This document shows positions 9,655-19,784 of a stretch of 62,879 bases of DNA, piece after piece (position 1 is the stretch's first letter; each line of letters begins with the position of its first letter). A model generated the notes under the pieces. It worked only from the letters and a program-made list of their open reading frames with translations. It did no database searches and was not told the DNA's origin. This DNA comes from a virus (Duplodnaviria; Caudoviricetes). Position numbers and translations under genes: made by a program. Where the stretch lies: positions 1 to 62,879 of IMG/VR virus record IMGVR_UViG_3300031965_000026. One strand, given 5' to 3'.

Positions 9655-10005
9655 GTGGGTGACTCGGCCGCCGCCAACACCCGCGCACTCAACGGCGGCG
9701 TTCAGGTGTGGCTACGGTGGGCGGCAGGGCTGACGCTGCCGGCCCTGCTGGCGGGCATCGTCTGGCTCGCCACGGAGGTATCGAGCCTGCGTGCAACCGA
9801 CAGAGAGCACGCGATATACATCCAGACACTACAGGATGGTCGCTCAGACATCCGGGATATGGTGGAGGCGACTCACGGTTTGACCGTGCACATTGAGAAA
9901 TTTGCGGTGAGCCTGTCACACATGGCGGACGCCGTGAAACAGCTACAGGCGGATGGGCGAGAGCGGGATCAGAGGGCGTCGCCACCGGCACCGCCCGAGC
10001 GGTGA
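9655..10005 (+). CDS. Membrane-anchored coiled-coil protein
   Basis: One TM segment followed by a heptad-like region. Confidence 0.55.
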   Translation: MGDSAAANTRALNGGVQVWLRWAAGLTLPALLAGIVWLATEVSSLRATDREHAIYIQTLQDGRSDIRDMVEATHGLTVHIEKFAVSLSHMADAVKQLQADGRERDQRASPPAPPER

Positions 10006-10030
10006 TGGCATAGAAGGCTGTAAGGCGTCA

Positions 10031-10567
10031 ATGAACAGCAAAAGACAACTCGAGGAAATGCGGAAAAAGCGAAAGATCTTCGTCGAGGAGTACTTGAAGG
10101 ATCTGAATGCCACCCAGGCAGCCATCCGCGCCGGCTACTCCGAGCGTAGCGCCAGGAGACAAGGCCATATCTTGCTCACCGAGCCGGCGATAGCGGATGC
10201 CGTCGCCAAGCACTCGGGGAAGTTGACTCAGCGCAACGGCTCGGCTGCCGATCAGGTGGTGACGTGGTTCCTCGAGCGCGCTCGCCTAGATCCCGCAGAC
10301 ATGTTCGACGAGCACGGCGAGCTCCTCCAGGTGAAGGCGATGCCCGAGCACGTGCGGCGCAACGTCGAGAGCTACGAGATGACGAAGTACGGTCCGAAGG
10401 TGAAGCTCCAGTCGCGCCATGCCGCGCTCGATGCGCTGGCACGCTATCACCAGCTCTTCCTCGAACGTCACCACGTAGAGCACTCGGGGGCGATCTCCCT
10501 GCACTTCGACTTTGGCGCGGCCACCAAGCCGCCTCCCGAGGTGCTGGCTGATGAGCCGGCTCTCTGA
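10031..10567 (+). CDS. terS: Terminase small subunit
   Basis: FVEEYLKDLNATQAAIRAGYSERSA motif. Confidence 0.92.
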   Translation: MNSKRQLEEMRKKRKIFVEEYLKDLNATQAAIRAGYSERSARRQGHILLTEPAIADAVAKHSGKLTQRNGSAADQVVTWFLERARLDPADMFDEHGELLQVKAMPEHVRRNVESYEMTKYGPKVKLQSRHAALDALARYHQLFLERHHVEHSGAISLHFDFGAATKPPPEVLADEPAL

Positions 10568-12913
10568 GTGTGGGATCTGCACTACCGGGCGAGCCGTACG
10601 CTCGCGCAGTTCCACGTATGCGACGACTTCGTACGCGGCGTGGTCGGACCCGTCGGCTCGGGCAAGTCCGTCGGGTGCGTGATCGAGGTGGTCGCGCGGT
10701 GCGTGCGTCAGGCACCGCAGGCAGACGGCGTGCGGCGCTCGCGCTGGGGCGTTATCCGGCAGACCTTCCCCGAACTGAAAACGACGACGATTGCCACCTG
10801 GCAGGACTGGGTGCCGGATCATATCTGCCGCCTGAAGTTCGACTCGCCGATCTCCGGGCGCCTGCACTTTCCGCTGCCCGACGGGACGACGGTGGACGCG
10901 GAGATCTTGTTCCTCGCGATCGACATCCCGGCGGACGTGAAGAAGCTGCTCTCGCTCGAGCTCACCGGGATCTGGATCAACGAGGCCCGGGAGGCACCCA
11001 GAGCCGTCCTGGACATGGCTCAGGCGCGGGTCGGGCGCTACCCCGCGAAGCGCGACGGCGGCTGTACCTGGCGAGGCGTGATAGCCGACACCAACCCCCC
11101 GGATGTCGATCACTGGTGGTACCGGCTCTTCGTCGAGGAGCGCCCCGAGGGGTGGTCCTGCTTCCATCAGCCGGGCGGGCTCAGCCCGCAGGCCGAGAAC
11201 ATCGAGAACCTGGACGAGGGCTATTACCAGCGGATCTCAGGGGGCAAGGACGAGGAGTGGATCCGGGTCTATGTGCACGGCGAGTACGGGTACATCGCCG
11301 ACGGCAAGCCGGTCTACCCCGAGTTCAAGATGGCGATGCACGTGGCCAGAGGGCCGCTCGAGCCGCATCCGAAGCTACCGGTCGGGATTGGCATCGACTT
11401 CGGATTGACGCCGGCGGCGGTCTTCGGACAGCGGGGGATCACCGGCCGGTGGCAGTGGCTGCGTGAGCTGGTGACCGAGGACATGGGCGCGGTGCGCTTC
11501 GCAGAGCTGCTCTCCGCCGAGGTGCAGCGGCACTACAGCGGATTCGAGCTGACGTTCTGGGGCGATCCGGCCGGGGACCAGCGAGCGCAGACCGACGAGG
11601 TGACGCCGTTTCAGATCTTGCGCGCGAGGGGGATCCCGGCGCGCCCGGCGCCGACCAATGACTTCGTGCTGCGCCGGGAGGCGGTCGCGGTGCCGCTCAC
11701 GCGGCTCATCGACGGGGAGCCGGGGCTCATCCTCGATCCCCGCATGACGACGACCGTCAAGGGCATGTCCGGCGGCTACAGCTACCGGCGCCTCCAGGTG
11801 CCGGGTGAGGAGCGCTACCAGGACAAGCCCAACAAGAACCGTTTCAGTCATTGTTGCTTTGTGGCGGGCACCGCGGTGTCGACGGAAACGGGTCGTTGCC
11901 CAATCGAGGCCGTGCGGGTGGGGGATCGCGCATGGACGCCGAGCGGCTTGCGCACGGTGACCGCGGTTATGTGTCGAGATGCCAGATCATTGCTCCGTAT
12001 ATCTGTCTCCAACGGTGATATCATCGTCTGCACGCCCGAGCATCCGTTCGCGGCGCCCGGAGGAAGGTTCATCCCGGCAGGCCAGCTTCAGCCTGGCGAC
12101 CGCCTGGTGACCGAAGGAGAAGCATGGGCCGTCCAGCCGTTCATCCGATCCAGACTATCGGAGGCATTCGGTTCTACCGGAAGCCGCCCGGCTATTACAA
12201 AGCCGACCATCGAGAGCACGGCGGCAAATACGCGCACCGCCATCAGTGGGAACTGCACTTCGGGCCTATTCCGGAGGGTATGCATGTTCACCACCGCAAC
12301 GGCGATCGTGCGGACAACCGCATCGAGAACCTCGAGCTGGTTACGCCGGGCGAGCACAACGAGATCCACGGTCCCCCGATTTGCGCAACCGCCGAACACA
12401 TGGCGAGCATTCGCCCACTGGCTGCGGAGGCACACCGCCGGATGGCGGGCACCGAGCGCGCCAGCGACATATCCCGCCGCGGAGTGTTGGCCCGCCCCTT
12501 CGTTCAAGGAGAGTGCAAACACTGTGGCCGGGTTTTCGAGGTTCGGGCCGGATATACAAAGCGCTATTGCTCTGCGTCATGCAGGGGAATGGCCAGAAAG
12601 GCACGCGGAGATGACGACGAGGACCGCGTCTGCCGGCATTGCGGGGCAGGGTTCCGCGTCGACAAATACGCCAGAAAAGATCACTGTTCGCGCCGTTGCG
12701 CCTCTCTCTCGTGGCGCACAGGTCTACAACCTGACGGTGGATGAGGAGCACGTCTACTACGTCGAAGGCGTGCTCGTCAGCAACTGCGACGCAGCACAAT
12801 ATTTGATGGTGGGCGAGGGCGAGGGCCGGGCGTTGCTCCGCTCGGGCGCCGAGCACAAGCACCGCGGGCGGGCCCGGCACAGCGGGACGTCCGGGGCGTG
12901 GATGGGGGCGTAG
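10568..12913 (+). CDS. terL: Terminase large subunit, containing an intein
   Basis: GPVGSGKS Walker A, IWINEARE, DTNPP, GIDFG, and SHC/CDAAQY split by the intein. Confidence 0.93.
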   Translation: MWDLHYRASRTLAQFHVCDDFVRGVVGPVGSGKSVGCVIEVVARCVRQAPQADGVRRSRWGVIRQTFPELKTTTIATWQDWVPDHICRLKFDSPISGRLHFPLPDGTTVDAEILFLAIDIPADVKKLLSLELTGIWINEAREAPRAVLDMAQARVGRYPAKRDGGCTWRGVIADTNPPDVDHWWYRLFVEERPEGWSCFHQPGGLSPQAENIENLDEGYYQRISGGKDEEWIRVYVHGEYGYIADGKPVYPEFKMAMHVARGPLEPHPKLPVGIGIDFGLTPAAVFGQRGITGRWQWLRELVTEDMGAVRFAELLSAEVQRHYSGFELTFWGDPAGDQRAQTDEVTPFQILRARGIPARPAPTNDFVLRREAVAVPLTRLIDGEPGLILDPRMTTTVKGMSGGYSYRRLQVPGEERYQDKPNKNRFSHCCFVAGTAVSTETGRCPIEAVRVGDRAWTPSGLRTVTAVMCRDARSLLRISVSNGDIIVCTPEHPFAAPGGRFIPAGQLQPGDRLVTEGEAWAVQPFIRSRLSEAFGSTGSRPAITKPTIESTAANTRTAISGNCTSGLFRRVCMFTTATAIVRTTASRTSSWLRRASTTRSTVPRFAQPPNTWRAFAHWLRRHTAGWRAPSAPATYPAAECWPAPSFKESANTVAGFSRFGPDIQSAIALRHAGEWPERHAEMTTRTASAGIAGQGSASTNTPEKITVRAVAPLSRGAQVYNLTVDEEHVYYVEGVLVSNCDAAQYLMVGEGEGRALLRSGAEHKHRGRARHSGTSGAWMGA
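11855..12784 (+). mobile_element. Intein (310 aa) in TerL
   Basis: N-terminus CFVAGT..., block B CTPEHPF, C-terminus VYNLTVDEEHVYYVEGVLVSN followed by Cys+1; removal restores SHCCDAAQY. Confidence 0.9.
12124..12744 (+). CDS. HNH endonuclease nested out-of-frame within the intein
   Basis: GAAGGAG RBS; HRHQWELHFGPIPEGMHVHHRNGDRADNRIENLE; CxxC...CSxxC zinc fingers. Confidence 0.88.
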   Translation: MGRPAVHPIQTIGGIRFYRKPPGYYKADHREHGGKYAHRHQWELHFGPIPEGMHVHHRNGDRADNRIENLELVTPGEHNEIHGPPICATAEHMASIRPLAAEAHRRMAGTERASDISRRGVLARPFVQGECKHCGRVFEVRAGYTKRYCSASCRGMARKARGDDDEDRVCRHCGAGFRVDKYARKDHCSRRCASLSWRTGLQPDGG

Positions 12914-12921
12914 GAGGGCGG

Positions 12922-13248
12922 ATGGCGGAATACGATTTTTCGAAGGTCTCGCTTTCGTTGTCACTGGAGGAGTACTCCAGGCGCTATATCGAGCCGGCGA
13001 TCAAGAAAATGTCTCGCCGGGTAAGGGCGCTGGCTTGGCGAAGGCGAAGGGCGAAGGGCGCGATCGGTCGAGCGTCCAGGGCTCCCTTGACCAGAGACGA
13101 GATTGAACAGGCAGCGCGATTGCTCTACTCCTCTCCTCGGCGTAAGGGCAACCTCGCTCAGTTCGTTCAGGTCGGAGATACCGTGAACATTCGCAAGCCG
13201 GTGCACTTCGAGATCTCTGATCGGCCGGCCTCAGACAAGGGGGCATGA
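12922..13248 (+). CDS. Small protein containing two major-capsid-like segments
   Basis: GGAGG RBS; LSLEEYSRRYIEP and FVQVGDTVNIRKPVHFE match the capsid at 17565. Confidence 0.7.
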   Translation: MAEYDFSKVSLSLSLEEYSRRYIEPAIKKMSRRVRALAWRRRRAKGAIGRASRAPLTRDEIEQAARLLYSSPRRKGNLAQFVQVGDTVNIRKPVHFEISDRPASDKGA

Positions 13249-13986
13249 TCATGGCGGGTCCGCTCTTGCTGCTCGAGACGCACGAGGTGAAAGAGGCGCT
13301 CTATCACTTCGACACGCGCTTCGATCCCGAGCAGCTCTCGGGTGAGGTAATCGTGAGCCGGGACGAGGACGACGATTTCAATATCGGCCCGGTCATCTAC
13401 CGGCACACCCTCATGTTCACCCCGGTCGAGGGCGAGGCGCCGTGCGACACGTTCATGCGCCACGCGAAGCGAGTTCGACGGGAGTTCATCGCGCGACTAT
13501 GACCGCCTGCCACATCCACGTGACGTCGGCCGACGAGGAGGGCAACCATCGGGTGACGCGCCTCGAGCACGGGCCGCTCATCGGCGGCTACCCTCGGCAC
13601 CGGGAGGAGCACGTCGTGCACAAGGAGCACCTCGAGGCGCTCCTGCACCGACTGCGCACGCAGCCGAGCCCGCAGAGCCGGGTGAAGCCCTCGCCGCTCG
13701 GGCATGAGCCCTACACCGACATGTACGTGGTGCGGGTTTGAGCCCCCGCGACCTGGCAAGCGTCTCGCCCATCGGTGAGCGCGCCGACTGGTCGGCCAAG
13801 GCCGCGGCCGGAGACGCGATGCAGCGGGTCGAGCACGACCGGCCTATCGTGTGTCTCTGGATCGATGAGCAGGGCGTGATGCGCTACGCGAAGGCCAACA
13901 CGTCGGTCGCCGATCTCTGCACGATGCAAGTGTTTCTCGCGCACATGGCCACGTACGCGTGGCGAAAGGTGGAGGAGGACGACTGA
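13245..13986 (+). other. Three small coupled hypothetical genes (13245-13502, 13499-13741, 13738-13986)
   Basis: Overlapping start/stop codons; GC3 bias. Confidence 0.55.
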
Positions 13987-14033
13987 GCAACCCCGGCGCC
14001 CGTCACAAGACTGCGCCCGAGCGCAGCGACACC

Positions 14034-14060
14034 AAGGGCCCTTCGGGGCCTTTTTCGTTT
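14034..14060 (+). terminator. Intrinsic terminator
   Basis: AAGGGCCC-TTCG-GGGCCTTTTT. Confidence 0.8.
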
Positions 14061-14075
14061 CCAAAGGAGATTGCG

Positions 14076-14225
14076 ATGAAGAAGTCTGGCAAGGGCCCGA
14101 GCTACGGCAACAGCAAGCTGAACAGCCCCCCGGCCCGCCCGAAGGACAGCCGTCCGAAGATCAAGCTCCAGACGGGCACGACCACGAGCTCGATGAAGCC
14201 GGGTGTGCGTAGCCGGGGCGCGTAA
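14076..14225 (+). CDS. Small basic protein
   Basis: AAAGGAG RBS; MKKSGKGPSYG... Confidence 0.55.
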   Translation: MKKSGKGPSYGNSKLNSPPARPKDSRPKIKLQTGTTTSSMKPGVRSRGA

Positions 14226-14233
14226 GGGGCCTG

Positions 14234-16396
14234 ATGCTCGAAGATCTGCACCTCCCCGTCGCCGGGGAGGACGGGACGCCTAGCGACGATGAGCACGTCG
14301 TTTCAGAAGCACGGGACCGGCTTGCTCGTGCCATCGAGTACGAATCGAACATCCGAGAGCAAGCGGCAGACGACGTCCGCTTCCTGAGCGGCGAGCAGTG
14401 GCCGCAGAAGGTCCGCCAGGAGCGCGAGGAGGACGGGCGGCCGGTCCTCACGATCAACAAGCTCCCGCAGTACGTCGAGCAGGTGGTGGGTGAGGAGCGC
14501 CAGAACCGGCCGTCCATCAAGGTGGTGCCGTCTTCCGGCGTCAGCGTGCCGAAGACCAAGAATCTGCGCGGGGACAAGGGCTACGATCTCGCCGAGATCT
14601 ACACCGGGCTCATCCGGGACATCGAGCAGCGCTCGGCCGCCGACCAAGCGTACGACTGGGCGTTCCAGCAGTCGGTCGAGCACGGGTTCGGCCACTGGCG
14701 GGTGCTGACCGAGTACTCGGGCGACGACTCCTTCGATCAGGACATCCGCATCAAGCGGATCCGGAACGCGTTCCAGGTGTACTGGGATCCGGTGTCGGAG
14801 GAGTGGGATAAGAGCGACGCGCAGTGGTGCATCGTCTCGAGCGAGATCCACAAGAACGATTTCCGTGCCCGGTGGCCGGACTCCTCGATGGCTGCTCTCG
14901 AGGGTGCCGAGGGTGACTGGACGGTGCACTGGTTCCACGACGAGCTGGTGCGCATTGCCGAGTACTGGCGCAAGGTCCCGCACACCAAGACGCTGCACCT
15001 GCTCTCCGACGGCGCGGTGGTCGACGGCGAGAAGTGGGTGAAGATTGGAGACGAGCTGGCCGAGCAGGGGATCACGAGCATCCGCGAGCGCCGGGTGAAG
15101 AGTTACAAGATCGAGTGGCGGCTCATGAACGGGGTCGAGGTGCTCGAGGGGCCGAAGGACTGGCCGGGGCAGTACATCCCGATCGTCACCTGCTACGGGC
15201 GCGAGCTCTTCGTCGACGGGCGACCCGAATACCGCGGGATCATCCGGCACGCGAAAGAGCCGCAGCGGATGTTCAACTTCTGGCGCACGAGCTCCACCGA
15301 GCAGGTGGCCCTCGCGCCCAAGGTCCCGTGGGTGGTCTCCGATGACCAGATCGACGGCTTCGAGGACCTCTGGGTGCACGCGAACACCAAGAACTACTCG
15401 TACCTGCCTTACCGCCACACGGGCGCGCCACCGCCGCAGCGTCCGACCATGCCACAGATCCCCCCGGGTGCGGTGAACGAGGCGCTGTCGGCCGGTGAGG
15501 ACATCAAGGCCGCGGTCGGCATGTACAACCCGAGCGTGGGCAACCGCGAGGATACGGCGTCGGGCATCGCCATCGAGCGGCTTCAGCGCAAGGCCGATAC
15601 CGCGACATTCTCGTTCATCGACAACCTCACGCGGGCCATCCGGCACACCGGCAAGATCCTGATCGATCTCATCCCGCGCGTGTACGACGGCGAGCGCATC
15701 GTGCGGATTGCCGCGTGGGACGAGACCGAGGACTTCGTCGAGATCAACAAGACGGTGCTCGACGAGCAAACGGGCGAGACCGTGGTCATGGCCGATCTCT
15801 CGGTCGGGCGCTATGACGTGCGGGTGCGGGCTGGGCCCTCTTACGCCACGCAGCGCGAGGAGGCGCAGGACGGGATGCTCCAGTTCATCCAGACGGTGCC
15901 GGACTTGGCCGCTCAGGTCGCCGATCTCTTCGCCGAAGCCATGGACTGGCCGAACGCGGACAAGATCGCGAAGAGACTCAAGAAGGCGCTGCCTCCCGCC
16001 ATGCTCGAGCCCGGCGAGCTCGACGAGGAGGACCAGCCGCCCCCGCCCGAGCCGACGCCCGCGGAGCAGGCCGAGCTCGCGAAGGCCGAGGCCGAGATGG
16101 CCAAGGCGGAGGCGACCAAGGCGAAGGCCGCGGCCGACACGCTCGCCGCACAGGTGGAGATGGCGACCGCCGGCCTGCACGCGGAGGCCGACGTGGTTCG
16201 CACCGAGGCCGATATCGAGAACGCCCGCACGGGCGTCGTCAACCAGCGGATGGACTCCGAGGAGCGGCTCGCGGCTCGCGGGCAAGACTCCGAGGCGCAG
16301 ATCCGAGAGCAGGTGGCCTCAGCGATCGCCGAGCTGATCGCGTCCGGCCAGCTCCAGCAGATCTTGGCCGCAGGACCGCAGCCACCCGCGCAGTAA
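14234..16396 (+). CDS. Portal protein (P22-like)
   Basis: DVRFLSGEQWP, RPVLTINKL, VRIAEYW, WPGQYIPIV, SGIAIERLQ, GRYDVRV..GPSYATQREE. Confidence 0.92.
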   Translation: MLEDLHLPVAGEDGTPSDDEHVVSEARDRLARAIEYESNIREQAADDVRFLSGEQWPQKVRQEREEDGRPVLTINKLPQYVEQVVGEERQNRPSIKVVPSSGVSVPKTKNLRGDKGYDLAEIYTGLIRDIEQRSAADQAYDWAFQQSVEHGFGHWRVLTEYSGDDSFDQDIRIKRIRNAFQVYWDPVSEEWDKSDAQWCIVSSEIHKNDFRARWPDSSMAALEGAEGDWTVHWFHDELVRIAEYWRKVPHTKTLHLLSDGAVVDGEKWVKIGDELAEQGITSIRERRVKSYKIEWRLMNGVEVLEGPKDWPGQYIPIVTCYGRELFVDGRPEYRGIIRHAKEPQRMFNFWRTSSTEQVALAPKVPWVVSDDQIDGFEDLWVHANTKNYSYLPYRHTGAPPPQRPTMPQIPPGAVNEALSAGEDIKAAVGMYNPSVGNREDTASGIAIERLQRKADTATFSFIDNLTRAIRHTGKILIDLIPRVYDGERIVRIAAWDETEDFVEINKTVLDEQTGETVVMADLSVGRYDVRVRAGPSYATQREEAQDGMLQFIQTVPDLAAQVADLFAEAMDWPNADKIAKRLKKALPPAMLEPGELDEEDQPPPPEPTPAEQAELAKAEAEMAKAEATKAKAAADTLAAQVEMATAGLHAEADVVRTEADIENARTGVVNQRMDSEERLAARGQDSEAQIREQVASAIAELIASGQLQQILAAGPQPPAQ

Positions 16397-16441
16397 CCCC
16401 GCCCGTCCGGGCGCTAACGCCGTGAGGCGTCAGGAGTACGC

Positions 16442-17440
16442 ATGGCAGAGGATTCGAACGTCACCACCCGGGACGAGCCGCGAGAAGAGCGGCCAATGCC
16501 CGAGGTGCTGACCGAGGAGGTGCTCACGTTCCCCGACGGGACCCGGGCGACCCGCACGGATCTCGAGGACGAGGGCGGCGACGCCCACGAGTACCGCGCG
16601 GCGAAGGCCGCACAACGCGCTGCCACCGAGGCGGCGACGCCCGAGGAGGGCGAGGAGGAGGAGCCCGGGGAGACCGAGGCGGCGGCCGAGCCCGAGGAGG
16701 CGGCGGCCAAGACCGAGGAAACCGACGACGCAGACGAGGCGCGTCGTGAGCAGCGTCGGCAGGAGAACCGCAGCCGGCGTCAGGCCCGCAAGCGTCGCGA
16801 GCAGGAGACGCGCGAGCGCCTGGAGGCGGCTGAGAAGCGCCTGGCCGAGCTCGAGGGGCAGAAGACGGAGCCCAAGGGCGATGACGCGAAGCCGCGAATG
16901 GACGACTTCGAGGAGCCCGAGGAGTACTTCGAGGCCATGCTCGACTGGCGCGACCGGCAGAAGGCGGCGCCCGAGAGCGAGCAGCCGCCTCAGCAGGCCC
17001 CGCCAGAGCCGCCCGAGGAGCTGCACGAGTTCTACGCCCATGGGGCGGCGCGCTACGGCGATTTTCGCGAGGTCGTGGGCGCCCAGGACTTGATGATCAC
17101 CCAGCACATGGCCGAGTTCATGTTCGACTCGGATGTAGGCTCGGATGTCGCGTACTACCTCGGCCAGCACAAGGCCGAGGCCGCCGAGATCGCCCGGATG
17201 GACGACACGGCGGCTATCCGGGCGCTCGCGCGCCTGGAGGCGAAGGTAACCCAGCCGGCCAAGGCCGATCCGCCCGCCAAGGGCGCCGCGCGACCCGCGC
17301 GGAAAGTGACCCGTGCGTCCGATCCGATCACGCCCGTCTCGGGCGGTGGTGACGAGGCGCCGAAGTCGCCCGAGAACATGACGCAGGTGGAATACAACGC
17401 CTGGCGGACGAAGCAGCGTCGGGCACAGGGTCTCTACTGA
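16442..17440 (+). CDS. Scaffolding protein
   Basis: Acidic and coiled-coil; lies between portal and coat; DVAYYLG. Confidence 0.8.
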   Translation: MAEDSNVTTRDEPREERPMPEVLTEEVLTFPDGTRATRTDLEDEGGDAHEYRAAKAAQRAATEAATPEEGEEEEPGETEAAAEPEEAAAKTEETDDADEARREQRRQENRSRRQARKRREQETRERLEAAEKRLAELEGQKTEPKGDDAKPRMDDFEEPEEYFEAMLDWRDRQKAAPESEQPPQQAPPEPPEELHEFYAHGAARYGDFREVVGAQDLMITQHMAEFMFDSDVGSDVAYYLGQHKAEAAEIARMDDTAAIRALARLEAKVTQPAKADPPAKGAARPARKVTRASDPITPVSGGGDEAPKSPENMTQVEYNAWRTKQRRAQGLY

Positions 17441-17564
17441 GCGTCTAGTTCCCCGGGACCGTCGAGACGACGGACCCCCATCCCATCACTGAAACGTGAC
17501 TGCGCCGGGCAGGCATTAGCCCGGCACGGGCTCGTGCGTCTCCGGCGCAGCGCCGGAGACTTCC

Positions 17565-18770
17565 ATGGCCAACACCATTCTCACGCCTACCGTGATCGCA
17601 CGGGAGGCGCTTTTCCATCTCGAGAACAACCTCGTGATGGGCCGCAACGTCTACCGCAAGTACGAGCACGAGTTCGTCAAGGTCGGGGACACCGTCAACA
17701 TTCGAAAGCCCGTCCAGTTCGAGGTGACGGACGGCGCGACGCTCTCAAAGCAGAACGTCACGGAGACCAATACCTCGATCGTGATCTCGAGCCGCAAGCA
17801 CGTCGCCTGGGGCTTCGACACGCAGAGCTTGACGCTCTCCATCGAGGAGTACTCCAAGCGCTACATCCAGCCGGGGTGCATCGCGCTCGCGAATCAGGTC
17901 GACGTCGATCTGCTCGCGCTCTACACCGACTTCTACACGTCGGCGGGGACCGCGGGCACTACCCCGAACACGTTCAGCCAGCTCGGCAACCTTGCCGCGG
18001 CCATGGACCGGGTGCCGGTGCCGGACGACGGCGAGCGCAAGCTTGTATTGAACCCGACGGCGCGGTGGGCGATGGCCGATGCGTTGAAGGGGATCTTCGA
18101 CGCGTCCATGCCCAAGGAGTTCGTGCGCAAGGGCCTGCTCGGGCGGCTCGCGAACATGGAGATCTACGGGGACCAGAACGTGGCTCGCCACCAGGTGGGA
18201 TCGGACGTCGGCACGGGCACCCCGCTCGTGGACACCACGACCTCAGCCGACGGTGATACCTCGATCTTGACCGACGGGTGGTCGACCACGCACACCGCCG
18301 CGGTGCGCAAGGGTGACGTGTTCACCATCGCCGGGGTGTTCTCGTTGAACCGGGTGTCGAAGGTCAACACCGGGCAGCTTCAGCAGTTCGTGGCAACTGC
18401 GGACGCGAACTCCGATGGCGGCGGGCACGTCACCATTGCGCTCGATCCGCCGCTCAAGACGACCGGGGCGTACGCCACGATCAGCGCGTTGCCTGCGAAC
18501 GACGCAGCGCTCACCTTCTTCGGGAGCACCGAGGACGCGACCTACGCGCAGAACATCGCGTTCCACCGCAATGCGATCGCGCTCTGCGTCGTGCCGCTCG
18601 AGCTGCCAGACGGCGCCTCATGGAAGGCACGGGTGGAGCACGACGGGCTCTCCATCCGCATCGTGAAGGACTACGACGTGGTGGAGGACGAGGAGATCGT
18701 GAGGCTCGACATTTTGTACGGAACACGAGTGATCTATCCTGAATTGGGTGCGCGCCTCTGGGGAGAATAG
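17565..18770 (+). CDS. Major capsid protein (P22 coat family)
   Basis: MANTILTP, GDTVNIRKP, GDVFTIAGV, NIAFHRNAI, RLDILYG. Confidence 0.93.
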   Translation: MANTILTPTVIAREALFHLENNLVMGRNVYRKYEHEFVKVGDTVNIRKPVQFEVTDGATLSKQNVTETNTSIVISSRKHVAWGFDTQSLTLSIEEYSKRYIQPGCIALANQVDVDLLALYTDFYTSAGTAGTTPNTFSQLGNLAAAMDRVPVPDDGERKLVLNPTARWAMADALKGIFDASMPKEFVRKGLLGRLANMEIYGDQNVARHQVGSDVGTGTPLVDTTTSADGDTSILTDGWSTTHTAAVRKGDVFTIAGVFSLNRVSKVNTGQLQQFVATADANSDGGGHVTIALDPPLKTTGAYATISALPANDAALTFFGSTEDATYAQNIAFHRNAIALCVVPLELPDGASWKARVEHDGLSIRIVKDYDVVEDEEIVRLDILYGTRVIYPELGARLWGE

Positions 18771-18842
18771 CGTTAAGACCGTAGCGCCGTAGACTGATCT
18801 TTGGTATAGTTTCATGACGTATCAAATATCGGTCTTGGCGCT

Positions 18843-19430
18843 ATGTCTACATGCTGCATAAAGGAATGCGAAAAAAAGGTGCTGGCACACGATATGTGCT
18901 CCATGCACTGGCAGCGCTTCCGTCTTCATGGGTCACCCCTCAGAACGAAAACCGTGCAGTATCACGGCCTGACACCAAAGGAGAGGTTCCTAAAGTACGT
19001 CGATCGACCTCCTGAGGGTTGTTGGCCCTGGAAGGGCGGGCTCAATGGTTATAAAGGGTATGGGATGTTCAACTACTATGGACGTCCTAGATTGGCCTCT
19101 CGCGTCTCCTGGATGTTGTTCAAGGGCGATATACCCGACGGTTTGTTTGTGTGCCACGCATGCGACAACCCGAAGTGTGTTAACCCGGACCATCTATTCT
19201 TGGGGTCGCAGAAAGACAACATGGACGATATGGTGGCCAAGGGTCGCAGCAATAATGCCGCCAAGTCTCTACCAGGAGTTTTGCATGGTGGGGTGAAACT
19301 CACCGATGCGGATGTGCTGGAGATACGGTCTGCCTCGCAGTCTTTCAGGTTTTTGGCTCGACGCTATGGTGTGAGCACGCGAACCATAGGAGACGTGAAA
19401 AGCCGTCGCTCTTGGAAGCATGTTCCTTAG
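18843..19430 (+). CDS. HNH homing endonuclease
   Basis: CWPWKG..GYG; VCHACDNPKCVNPDHLFLGSQKDNMDD; lower-GC insert. Confidence 0.92.
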   Translation: MSTCCIKECEKKVLAHDMCSMHWQRFRLHGSPLRTKTVQYHGLTPKERFLKYVDRPPEGCWPWKGGLNGYKGYGMFNYYGRPRLASRVSWMLFKGDIPDGLFVCHACDNPKCVNPDHLFLGSQKDNMDDMVAKGRSNNAAKSLPGVLHGGVKLTDADVLEIRSASQSFRFLARRYGVSTRTIGDVKSRRSWKHVP

Positions 19431-19453
19431 TTACGTCGCAAGTTCTGGTTAAC

Positions 19454-19480
19454 CGGGCCTCTTCGGAGGCCTTTTTCTTT
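19454..19480 (+). terminator. Intrinsic terminator
   Basis: GGCCTC-TTCG-GAGGCC followed by TTTTT. Confidence 0.8.
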
Positions 19481-19496
19481 TCAGGAGATCACTATC

Positions 19497-19784
19497 ATGG
19501 CACTCACTGTTTCGGGCTCGGGCCAGCAAGCCACCGTCAAGCAAGTCTCAGACAATCGTTCCGATGGGTTACAGGTCGGGCAGTCCGCTGCCGATCTAGT
19601 CGGCTTTTACGGGGTAGATCCCGTCGTTCAGCCGGCGGACACTGATCAGGGCGCGGTGACCGCGACCACGACCACGACCGCGACGACCACGGCGCTTCAG
19701 GCCGACATCGATGCGGTGCGCACGCTGGCCAACCAGCTCCGATCTGATCTGGTCGATCTCGGCCTCATCAAGGGCGCCGCGTAA
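19497..19784 (+). CDS. Putative head decoration/fibre protein, Thr-rich
   Basis: VGFYGVDPVVQP...TATTTTTATTT...LVDLGLIKGAA; directly after the capsid. Confidence 0.6.
   Translation: MALTVSGSGQQATVKQVSDNRSDGLQVGQSAADLVGFYGVDPVVQPADTDQGAVTATTTTTATTTALQADIDAVRTLANQLRSDLVDLGLIKGAA

Follow-up and report, generated by a model that had tools for sequence, protein, structure and literature searches.

How does a phage come to carry, immediately behind its large terminase gene, a small open reading frame which reads like two pieces of a major capsid protein joined in the wrong order, and does this frame encode a working protein? The question is raised by P0001, an ORF of 108 codons at positions 12922..13248 (+ strand) of a soil phage. 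The window, i.e. the whole stretch of DNA analysed here, comprises the 62,879 bases of the source record, which has a GC content of 66.8% and is rated 100% complete. According to Pfam and PHROG annotation the head module of the phage is P22-like. The gene of the small terminase (9953-10567, PHROG 51) is followed by that of the large terminase, TerL (10568-12913), which carries Hint/intein matches, by P0001 and by four more small ORFs extending up to position 14225. The portal gene (14234-16396; PF16510, E=5.9e-194), a scaffold-sized gene (16442-17440), the coat gene (17565-18770, + strand; PF11651, E=8.8e-53) and, directly after the latter, an HNH_3 gene (18843-19430) complete this arrangement. 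The entire gap between TerL and portal is flanked by a 21-nt inverted repeat (12829-12849 / 14013-14033, 86% complementary), and a strong terminator-like hairpin (14034-14053) is located within orf88, shortly 5' of the portal gene.

Two separate BLASTP matches connect P0001 with the resident coat protein. Residues 4-34 (block A, 12931..13023, + strand) align with coat residues 82-112 (17808..17900, + strand), with 14 of 31 positions being identical (E=2e-7). Residues 80-100 (block B, 13159..13221, + strand) align with coat residues 36-56 (17670..17732, + strand), where 16 of 21 positions are identical and 20 of 21 score as positives (E=1e-9). The first-pass annotation of this DNA had described a small protein made of two coat segments in reversed order; both matches bear this out, and the coat coordinates which it had given (17673-17732 and about 17826-17873) are right. 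A profile built from 120 coat homologues is matched by P0001 over its positions 82-145 (21-22 bits) and 36-57 (20-21 bits), and none of 2000 shuffles reaches the real score of either block. For block B, hhalign assigns a probability of 96.7% to the match with the coat. At the DNA level the alignment of P0001 with the coat gene is limited to 31 nt (90%) and 53 nt (83%), and PHROG 283 (major head protein), which aligns with residues 5-68 of P0001, does so only with E=9.7e-4. Membership of P0001 in PF11651 was considered and rejected, as merely the two profile stretches, and not the full HK97-fold profile, are matched. A search of the window with the coat profile in all six frames reveals no other coat-like piece.

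The blocks are separated by an Arg-rich linker of 45 residues (P0001 residues 35-79, 13024..13158, + strand). With a pI of 10.9 and 17 Arg, to which 7 Lys add, P0001 agrees with the earlier description of a basic linker. Compared on its own with the coat profile, the linker gives no reported domain, whereas 678 of 2000 shuffles do. GC by codon position amounts to 0.60/0.67/0.67 in the linker, which hence lacks coding periodicity; such periodicity is present in the blocks (0.38/0.38/0.76 and 0.64/0.27/0.73). Within the window there is no other source for the linker or for the segment. An extension of block A through the linker, as suggested by the coat profile (to position 145) and by PHROG 283 (to position 157), was discarded in view of the low posterior probability beyond residue 34 and of the shuffles. 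Likewise, a circular permutant of one contiguous coat segment (about residues 33-145) is not supported, since the linker is neither homologous to coat residues 113-145 nor otherwise coat-like and shows no coding periodicity.

To locate the blocks within the HK97 fold we used an AlphaFold2 model of the resident coat protein (mean pLDDT 87.1, based on an alignment of 50 sequences), which superimposes on the coats of Sf6 (5l35), CUS-3 (8skg) and P22 (8i1v/5uu5) with TM values of at least 0.7. DSSP assigns to this model a strand at residues 43-47, strands at 69-73 and 76-84, a helix at 86-90 and its longest helix at 93-122. In terms of the HK97 fold (PMC5701804), the long helix corresponds to the spine helix of the P-domain and the hairpin formed between the strands to the E-loop. 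The mapping suggested by the first-pass annotation can thus be given: block B is predicted to correspond to the E-loop base, with strand 43-47 and the residues that open the loop, and block A to the last residues of the strand returning from the E-loop, followed by the short helix and by the spine helix over its first 20 residues. The 25 coat residues between the two pieces, including the tip of the E-loop, are absent from P0001. Judging from the DSSP positions in the coat model and from general knowledge of the HK97 fold, the counterparts of block A and block B are adjacent in three dimensions. Together, the blocks harbour 12 of the 41 columns which are invariant in 50 coat homologues, although they make up just 13% of the coat length. 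P0001 retains eight of these 12. The exchanges at the remaining ones (E36Q, K39Q, T90S and L108M) are all conservative, and W82Y affects a nearly invariant position. An AlphaFold2 model of P0001 calculated from the single sequence reaches a mean pLDDT of 65.8 and comprises a long helix at residues 15-53 and a short one at 58-68. The long helix takes in block A together with the initial portion of the linker (block-mean pLDDT 79-94 over residues 11-50), and block B is left unmodelled or disordered with pLDDT below 50.

The divergence between P0001 and the resident coat gene differs between the blocks. In block B we count 9.5 synonymous versus 5.5 non-synonymous differences (pS 0.68, pN 0.11), which deviates from neutrality with a binomial P=0.002. 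That the differences in this block are mostly synonymous had been pointed out before and holds true; no such excess is present in block A, where 8.2 synonymous face 18.8 non-synonymous differences (pS 0.54, not significant). Replacements are milder than those expected from random single-base changes in block B (P=0.014) as well as in block A (P=0.027). It is thus in the protein sequence that the likeness of P0001 to the coat has been preserved. Compared with the resident coat gene, DNA identity amounts to 76% in block B and 61% in block A. The respective values for the coat gene of the related locus L007, whose product is only 54% identical to the resident coat protein, are 74% and 62%. A family-rare serine which P0001 shares with the coat is encoded by codons of different families, TCG versus AGC. 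A recent intragenomic duplication of the resident coat gene is rejected on these grounds, because synonymous sites are near saturation and the L007 coat DNA is equally close. From the same two observations we conclude, on the basis of the substitution pattern, that the blocks stem either from a coat gene which diverged long ago or from an old copy.

A Shine-Dalgarno sequence AGGAGG (12912..12917, + strand) overlaps the TerL stop codon (12911-12913) and lies 4 nt before the ATG at 12922; at the other end, the P0001 stop codon overlaps the ATG of the next gene in an ATGA motif (13245..13248, + strand) which is preceded by an AAGGGGG motif. The frame contains no internal stop. None of the usual signs of decay, such as stops, frameshifts or a lost translation start, is found in P0001, whose 108 codons are open from the AGGAGG-preceded ATG to the ATGA end. 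Given the high coding density of phage genomes, an ORF behind a perfect ribosome-binding site is likely to yield a product, and we consider P0001 probably translated on account of its TerL-coupled ribosome-binding site and ATG. Shuffling of the whole ORF leaves the frame open in only 1.6% of cases. That both blocks, the linker and the TerL-coupled ATG fall into one open frame has a chance of roughly 3%, estimated as the rough product 1/3 x 1/3 x 0.26, in which 0.26 is the chance of a stop-free linker. The ribosome-binding site and the ATG are, however, located within a flank which is common to a close relative (the alignment reaches position 12928; see below) and hence were not made for P0001. 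In terms of composition, P0001 (GC 0.59, GC3 0.70) differs from its surroundings: GC3 is 0.88-0.91 in the TerL exteins, portal, scaffold and coat genes and 0.77-0.88 in the other core genes measured, the majority of the core genes falling between 0.84 and 0.90. Searches with P0001 retrieve no PADLOC family and no Pfam family at E<=0.01, while Rfam yields nothing but Ms_IGR-2, whose 19.6 bits fall below the gathering score of 45. Feature matches in a protein atlas are all below 0.9, with TM below 0.5; they lean to histone-fold-like small proteins and are to be taken as leads only.

Homologues with the permuted architecture, for which the first-pass annotation had proposed to search, are present in none of the collections searched. 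A word-indexed search of 5.8 billion protein clusters finds only P0001 itself at near length and nothing longer, and phmmer, run exhaustively over 1.84 billion representatives, retrieves only P0122 apart from P0001 itself. The latter is a 619-aa repeat protein with three matches at 29-32% identity, which we treat as chance. In tblastn searches of 50,697 phage records P0001 has no match, and at eight related loci, whose coats are 44-57% identical, it matches inside the coat genes only. The first third of the coat matches once in each of five related virus records, none of which contains a second coat fragment. That a lack of homologues, together with a lack of expression, would indicate a one-off remnant had been stated at the outset; as to homologues, this lack extends over all collections searched. 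Searches of metagenome contigs with the N-terminal third of the portal lead only to L012, a 39% relative, and orf85, the gene next to P0001, has no relative among viral and metagenome contigs. Among the titles listed in a survey of the literature on partial duplications or fragments of phage capsid genes none was relevant, and none of those listed for phage decoys concerns a stand-alone capsid-fragment decoy.

Insight into the history of the locus comes from a close relative, X2, assembled from a run of another study and differing from the window by about 1-3%. One of its contigs follows the window from 11347 to 11829, continues with 46 other letters, returns to 12806-12928, continues with 166 other letters and rejoins at 13268-13629. 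The first of these jumps drops the intein of TerL, while the second replaces the body of P0001. A strain-specific segment of 339 nt (12929..13267, + strand) can thereby be delimited, in place of which X2 possesses 166 unlike letters (joint 12928->13268). In agreement with this, the 90% identity cluster of P0001 consists of one member from one contig, and those of the neighbouring genes contain 2-4 members from other contigs. Convincing repeats at the breakpoints around the segment are not present, and no donor was found. The conserved gene downstream of P0001 is orf85 (P0123, 83 aa; 13251..13502, + strand). Its 90% cluster includes P0125 (135 aa, encoded on a contig of 5,716 nt), whose orf85 body is fused in frame to an unrelated N-extension of 52 aa. 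The 58 codons of P0125 which precede the shared part correspond exactly to the 7+166+1 bases of the X2 joint, so that the X2 allele is most likely of the P0125 type. It would follow from this arithmetic that relatives use the shared start for a different first gene of their own. The N-extension of P0125 is not coat-like, as 9.3% of shuffles score equally against the coat profile and hhalign gives a probability of 0.3%.

X2 departs from the window at 13 listed positions within 13268-14230, and 12 of these changes are synonymous when read in the frames of orf85, orf99, orf82 and orf88, a count which refers to the best-supported differences, beyond which there are 121 more; one of the 12 falls into the overlap of orf85 and orf99 and is non-synonymous in the orf99 frame. 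Since the differences are almost all synonymous, the genes downstream of P0001 are, by this sequence criterion, real and constrained, and the slot right after TerL is variable. The products of orf85, orf99, orf82 and orf88 (13251-14225) match no Pfam, PHROG or PADLOC family. We also considered the start of orf85 (13251-13430) and of its relatives as a third coat piece corresponding to coat residues 1-57, i.e. the N-arm and the first strand, as BLAST without composition correction gives E=0.002-0.08. This likeness is not supported by negative profile scores, by shuffles of which 3.8-6.7% score equally, or by an hhalign probability of 0.3%.

The TerL intein (310 aa, 11855..12784, + strand) ends 137 nt upstream of P0001. 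With 0.69 in its N part, 0.68 in the HNH gene nested within it and 0.61 in the HNH gene after the coat gene, GC3 of these elements is similarly low to the 0.70 of P0001. The intein is precisely absent from P0132, a TerL of 471 aa encoded on a 4,415-nt contig, and is also absent from X2, where the flanks are diverged. In the intein-less X2 alleles (window 11829-12806) the insertion site is bordered on either side by 20-odd bases which differ from those of the window phage, and this may represent a cleavage-resistant site. The C-terminal part of P0132 differs by one residue from that of the window TerL, yet no P0001-like protein at 90% identity is on record from the P0132 contig. Because of this, the polymorphisms of intein and P0001 are not strictly linked; P0001 is tied to the mobile elements by composition and position, not strictly.

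Some features of these elements deserve mention in their own right. The HNH_3 gene nested in the intein (ORF 12124-12744, E=2.5e-20) is free-standing, possesses an AAGGAG ribosome-binding site of its own and is read in a frame different from that of intein and TerL. The TerL frame is stop-free across the entire intein, although it stays open in only 5.9% of 20,000 synonymous recodings of the nested HNH gene. Terminase inteins with out-of-frame endonucleases, there of an endonuclease VII-like type, are described for actinophages in 10.1101/2025.01.02.630785. The HNH_3 gene at 18843-19430 is homing-endonuclease-like and has a GC content of 53%, far below that of the genome; the X2 relative covers this region. 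A terminator-like hairpin (19455-19472) follows this gene.

The reading which we favour, with a probability of about 0.45 and thus somewhat short of even odds, is that P0001 is a strain-specific chimeric ORF which arose by illegitimate recombination in a variable slot and which is a by-product or a very young gene rather than a conserved mimic. Two short stretches of a P22-type coat gene which diverged long ago would have been swapped and joined by Arg-rich filler not derived from the coat. The segment would have been assembled or imported by illegitimate or ectopic recombination, probably in connection with the surrounding traffic of homing endonucleases, that is, the intein with its nested HNH gene and the second HNH gene after the coat gene. 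Homing carries flanking DNA along with the endonuclease gene (PMC2790892, PMC2330249). What speaks for a by-product is that P0001 shows the marks of a gene remnant, in that no homologue shares its architecture, close relatives lack it and its composition is unlike that of the resident genes; to this come the filler, which does not resemble coding sequence, and the loss of coat-invariant residues. Against it speak the single open frame common to both blocks, the linker and the TerL-coupled ATG, the strong protein-level conservation of block B at saturated synonymous sites, the neighbourhood of the two blocks in the HK97 fold and the loose link to the intein. The conservative changes are odd for free drift and hard to square with the idea that the pieces were taken only very recently from a functional coat gene, and the ATGA overlap with the next gene is of a kind often seen in real operon genes. 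The first-pass annotation had offered three explanations, namely a decoy for capsid-sensing defences, an inhibitor of assembly and recombination debris from a related capsid gene. Debris fits best, since there is no homologue of this architecture, no second coat fragment in relatives and no such segment in close relatives, while decoy and inhibitor have gained no positive support. The derivation from a related capsid gene stands too, with the amendment that this source diverged long ago, so that the pieces were not copied recently from the resident coat gene.

It is possible, though unlikely, that P0001 functions as a mimic of the P-domain surface of the coat, i.e. as a permuted mini-domain which binds a partner of that surface. 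Such a partner could be a capsid sensor of the host, which P0001 would block or decoy, or coat subunits and their E-loops, be it of the own or of a rival phage, whose assembly P0001 would modulate or poison. Among the proteins which interfere with capsid assembly are capsid homologues and size-redirecting proteins of satellites. The single open frame with its strong ribosome-binding site and ATGA overlap is in line with a working protein. So are the contrast between pN and pS in block B and the conservative replacements, which include coat-invariant positions; against this, block A shows no synonymous excess, and the low dN/dS of block B could predate its excision from a real coat gene. In favour of a mimic, the blocks concentrate invariant columns, most of which are retained, and originate from pieces which lie side by side in the folded coat. 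The model joins block A and the beginning of the linker in one long helix, but leaves block B disordered, so that no mini-domain is predicted. What makes the idea concrete is that known immune sensors read this kind of surface: by analogy, CapRelSJ46, Lit with its trigger Gol, Avs7 and Dsr1, all of which read capsid proteins, would be conceivable counterparts. CapRelSJ46 is reported to contact the P-domain of the coat at its beta-sheet and spine helix (PMC9712102). Gol, by which T4 triggers Lit, is a short, most conserved stretch in the first quarter of gp23 (PMC3014915), and Avs7 as well as Dsr1 sense major capsid proteins (PMC13581612). A fragment which binds a sensor might, however, trigger it instead of blocking it. 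The missing homologues, the absence of the segment from the closest relatives and a GC3 unlike that of the resident genes likewise weigh against a mimic.

Rather doubtful appears a more specific form of this idea, according to which P0001 is a translated, permuted mini-copy of the P-domain that travels as mobile cargo beside the homing intein and occupies a host sensor or caps the E-loops of competitors. An anti-defence decoy or sponge would be expected to recur across phages or to belong to a PADLOC family, and in the collections searched P0001 does neither.

We regard it as improbable that P0001 is a real accessory (moron-like) protein whose function has nothing to do with the coat, for instance a small basic nucleic-acid-binding protein for which the coat pieces served as mere raw material. 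Its pI, its content of Arg and Lys and the confident long basic helix of the model would suit such a protein, as would its position among small genes under purifying selection and the lean of the atlas matches, all below 0.9, to histone-fold-like proteins. Yet any frame of GC-rich DNA is rich in Arg, Ala and Gly, the linker has no coding periodicity, and apart from the coat-derived PHROG match P0001 has neither a Pfam, PADLOC or PHROG family nor homologues.

Far less credible is the notion that P0001 and orf85 are the halves of an ancestral two-part gene resembling P0125, with a fast-evolving N-part in which the coat pieces are old. P0125 indeed reads through 135 aa in a single frame, with another N-part on the orf85 body, its first eight residues are, by eye, alike in character to those of P0001, and ATG and ribosome-binding site are situated in the shared flank. 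Its N-part is, however, neither coat-like nor similar to P0001 (BLAST E=13), and P0001 and orf85 are read in different frames (12922 versus 13251 modulo 3). An artefact, i.e. a chance resemblance or an assembly chimera, can hardly be credited: the P0001 stretch is complete in one sample only, but the E-values of both blocks and the 2000 shuffles speak against chance, and a second independent assembly (run X1), probably of the same sample, contains a 30,546-nt contig identical over 10500-19500.

If P0001 is the by-product which we favour, the locus offers a clean natural snapshot of the birth of a phage gene, in which two pieces of a structural gene come to lie in frame downstream of a ribosome-binding site that was already there, beside mobile endonuclease elements and at a position which varies between genomes with only 1-3% divergence. 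Should P0001 be functional, even a 63-kb P22-like phage may carry a stand-alone copy of a capsid surface read by sensors, and a very small, easily testable protein for the blocking of sensors or of capsid assembly would be at hand.

Compared with a P22-type coat protein (PF11651) of about 400 aa, P0001 with its 108 aa lacks A-domain, I-domain, N-arm and E-loop tip, and its pieces are swapped; what it shares are coat residues 36-56 and 82-112, the densest run of invariant columns of the family. With regard to CapRelSJ46, Gol, Avs7 and Dsr1, the triggers are parts of the full capsid protein in the excerpts of PMC9712102, PMC3014915 and PMC13581612, in which a separate phage gene consisting of the fragment only is not described. 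Nevertheless, the regions targeted there, as far as these excerpts define them, are short conserved stretches of the first quarter or of the P-domain, and are of the same kind as those copied in P0001. From co-conversion during homing the locus differs in that neither breakpoint repeats nor a donor were found and in that an intein-less relative has nearly the same C-extein. As at the mosaic junctions left by homing endonucleases and inteins, though, the P0001 segment lies close to an intein, has a low GC3 and is present in one and absent from another of nearly identical genomes.
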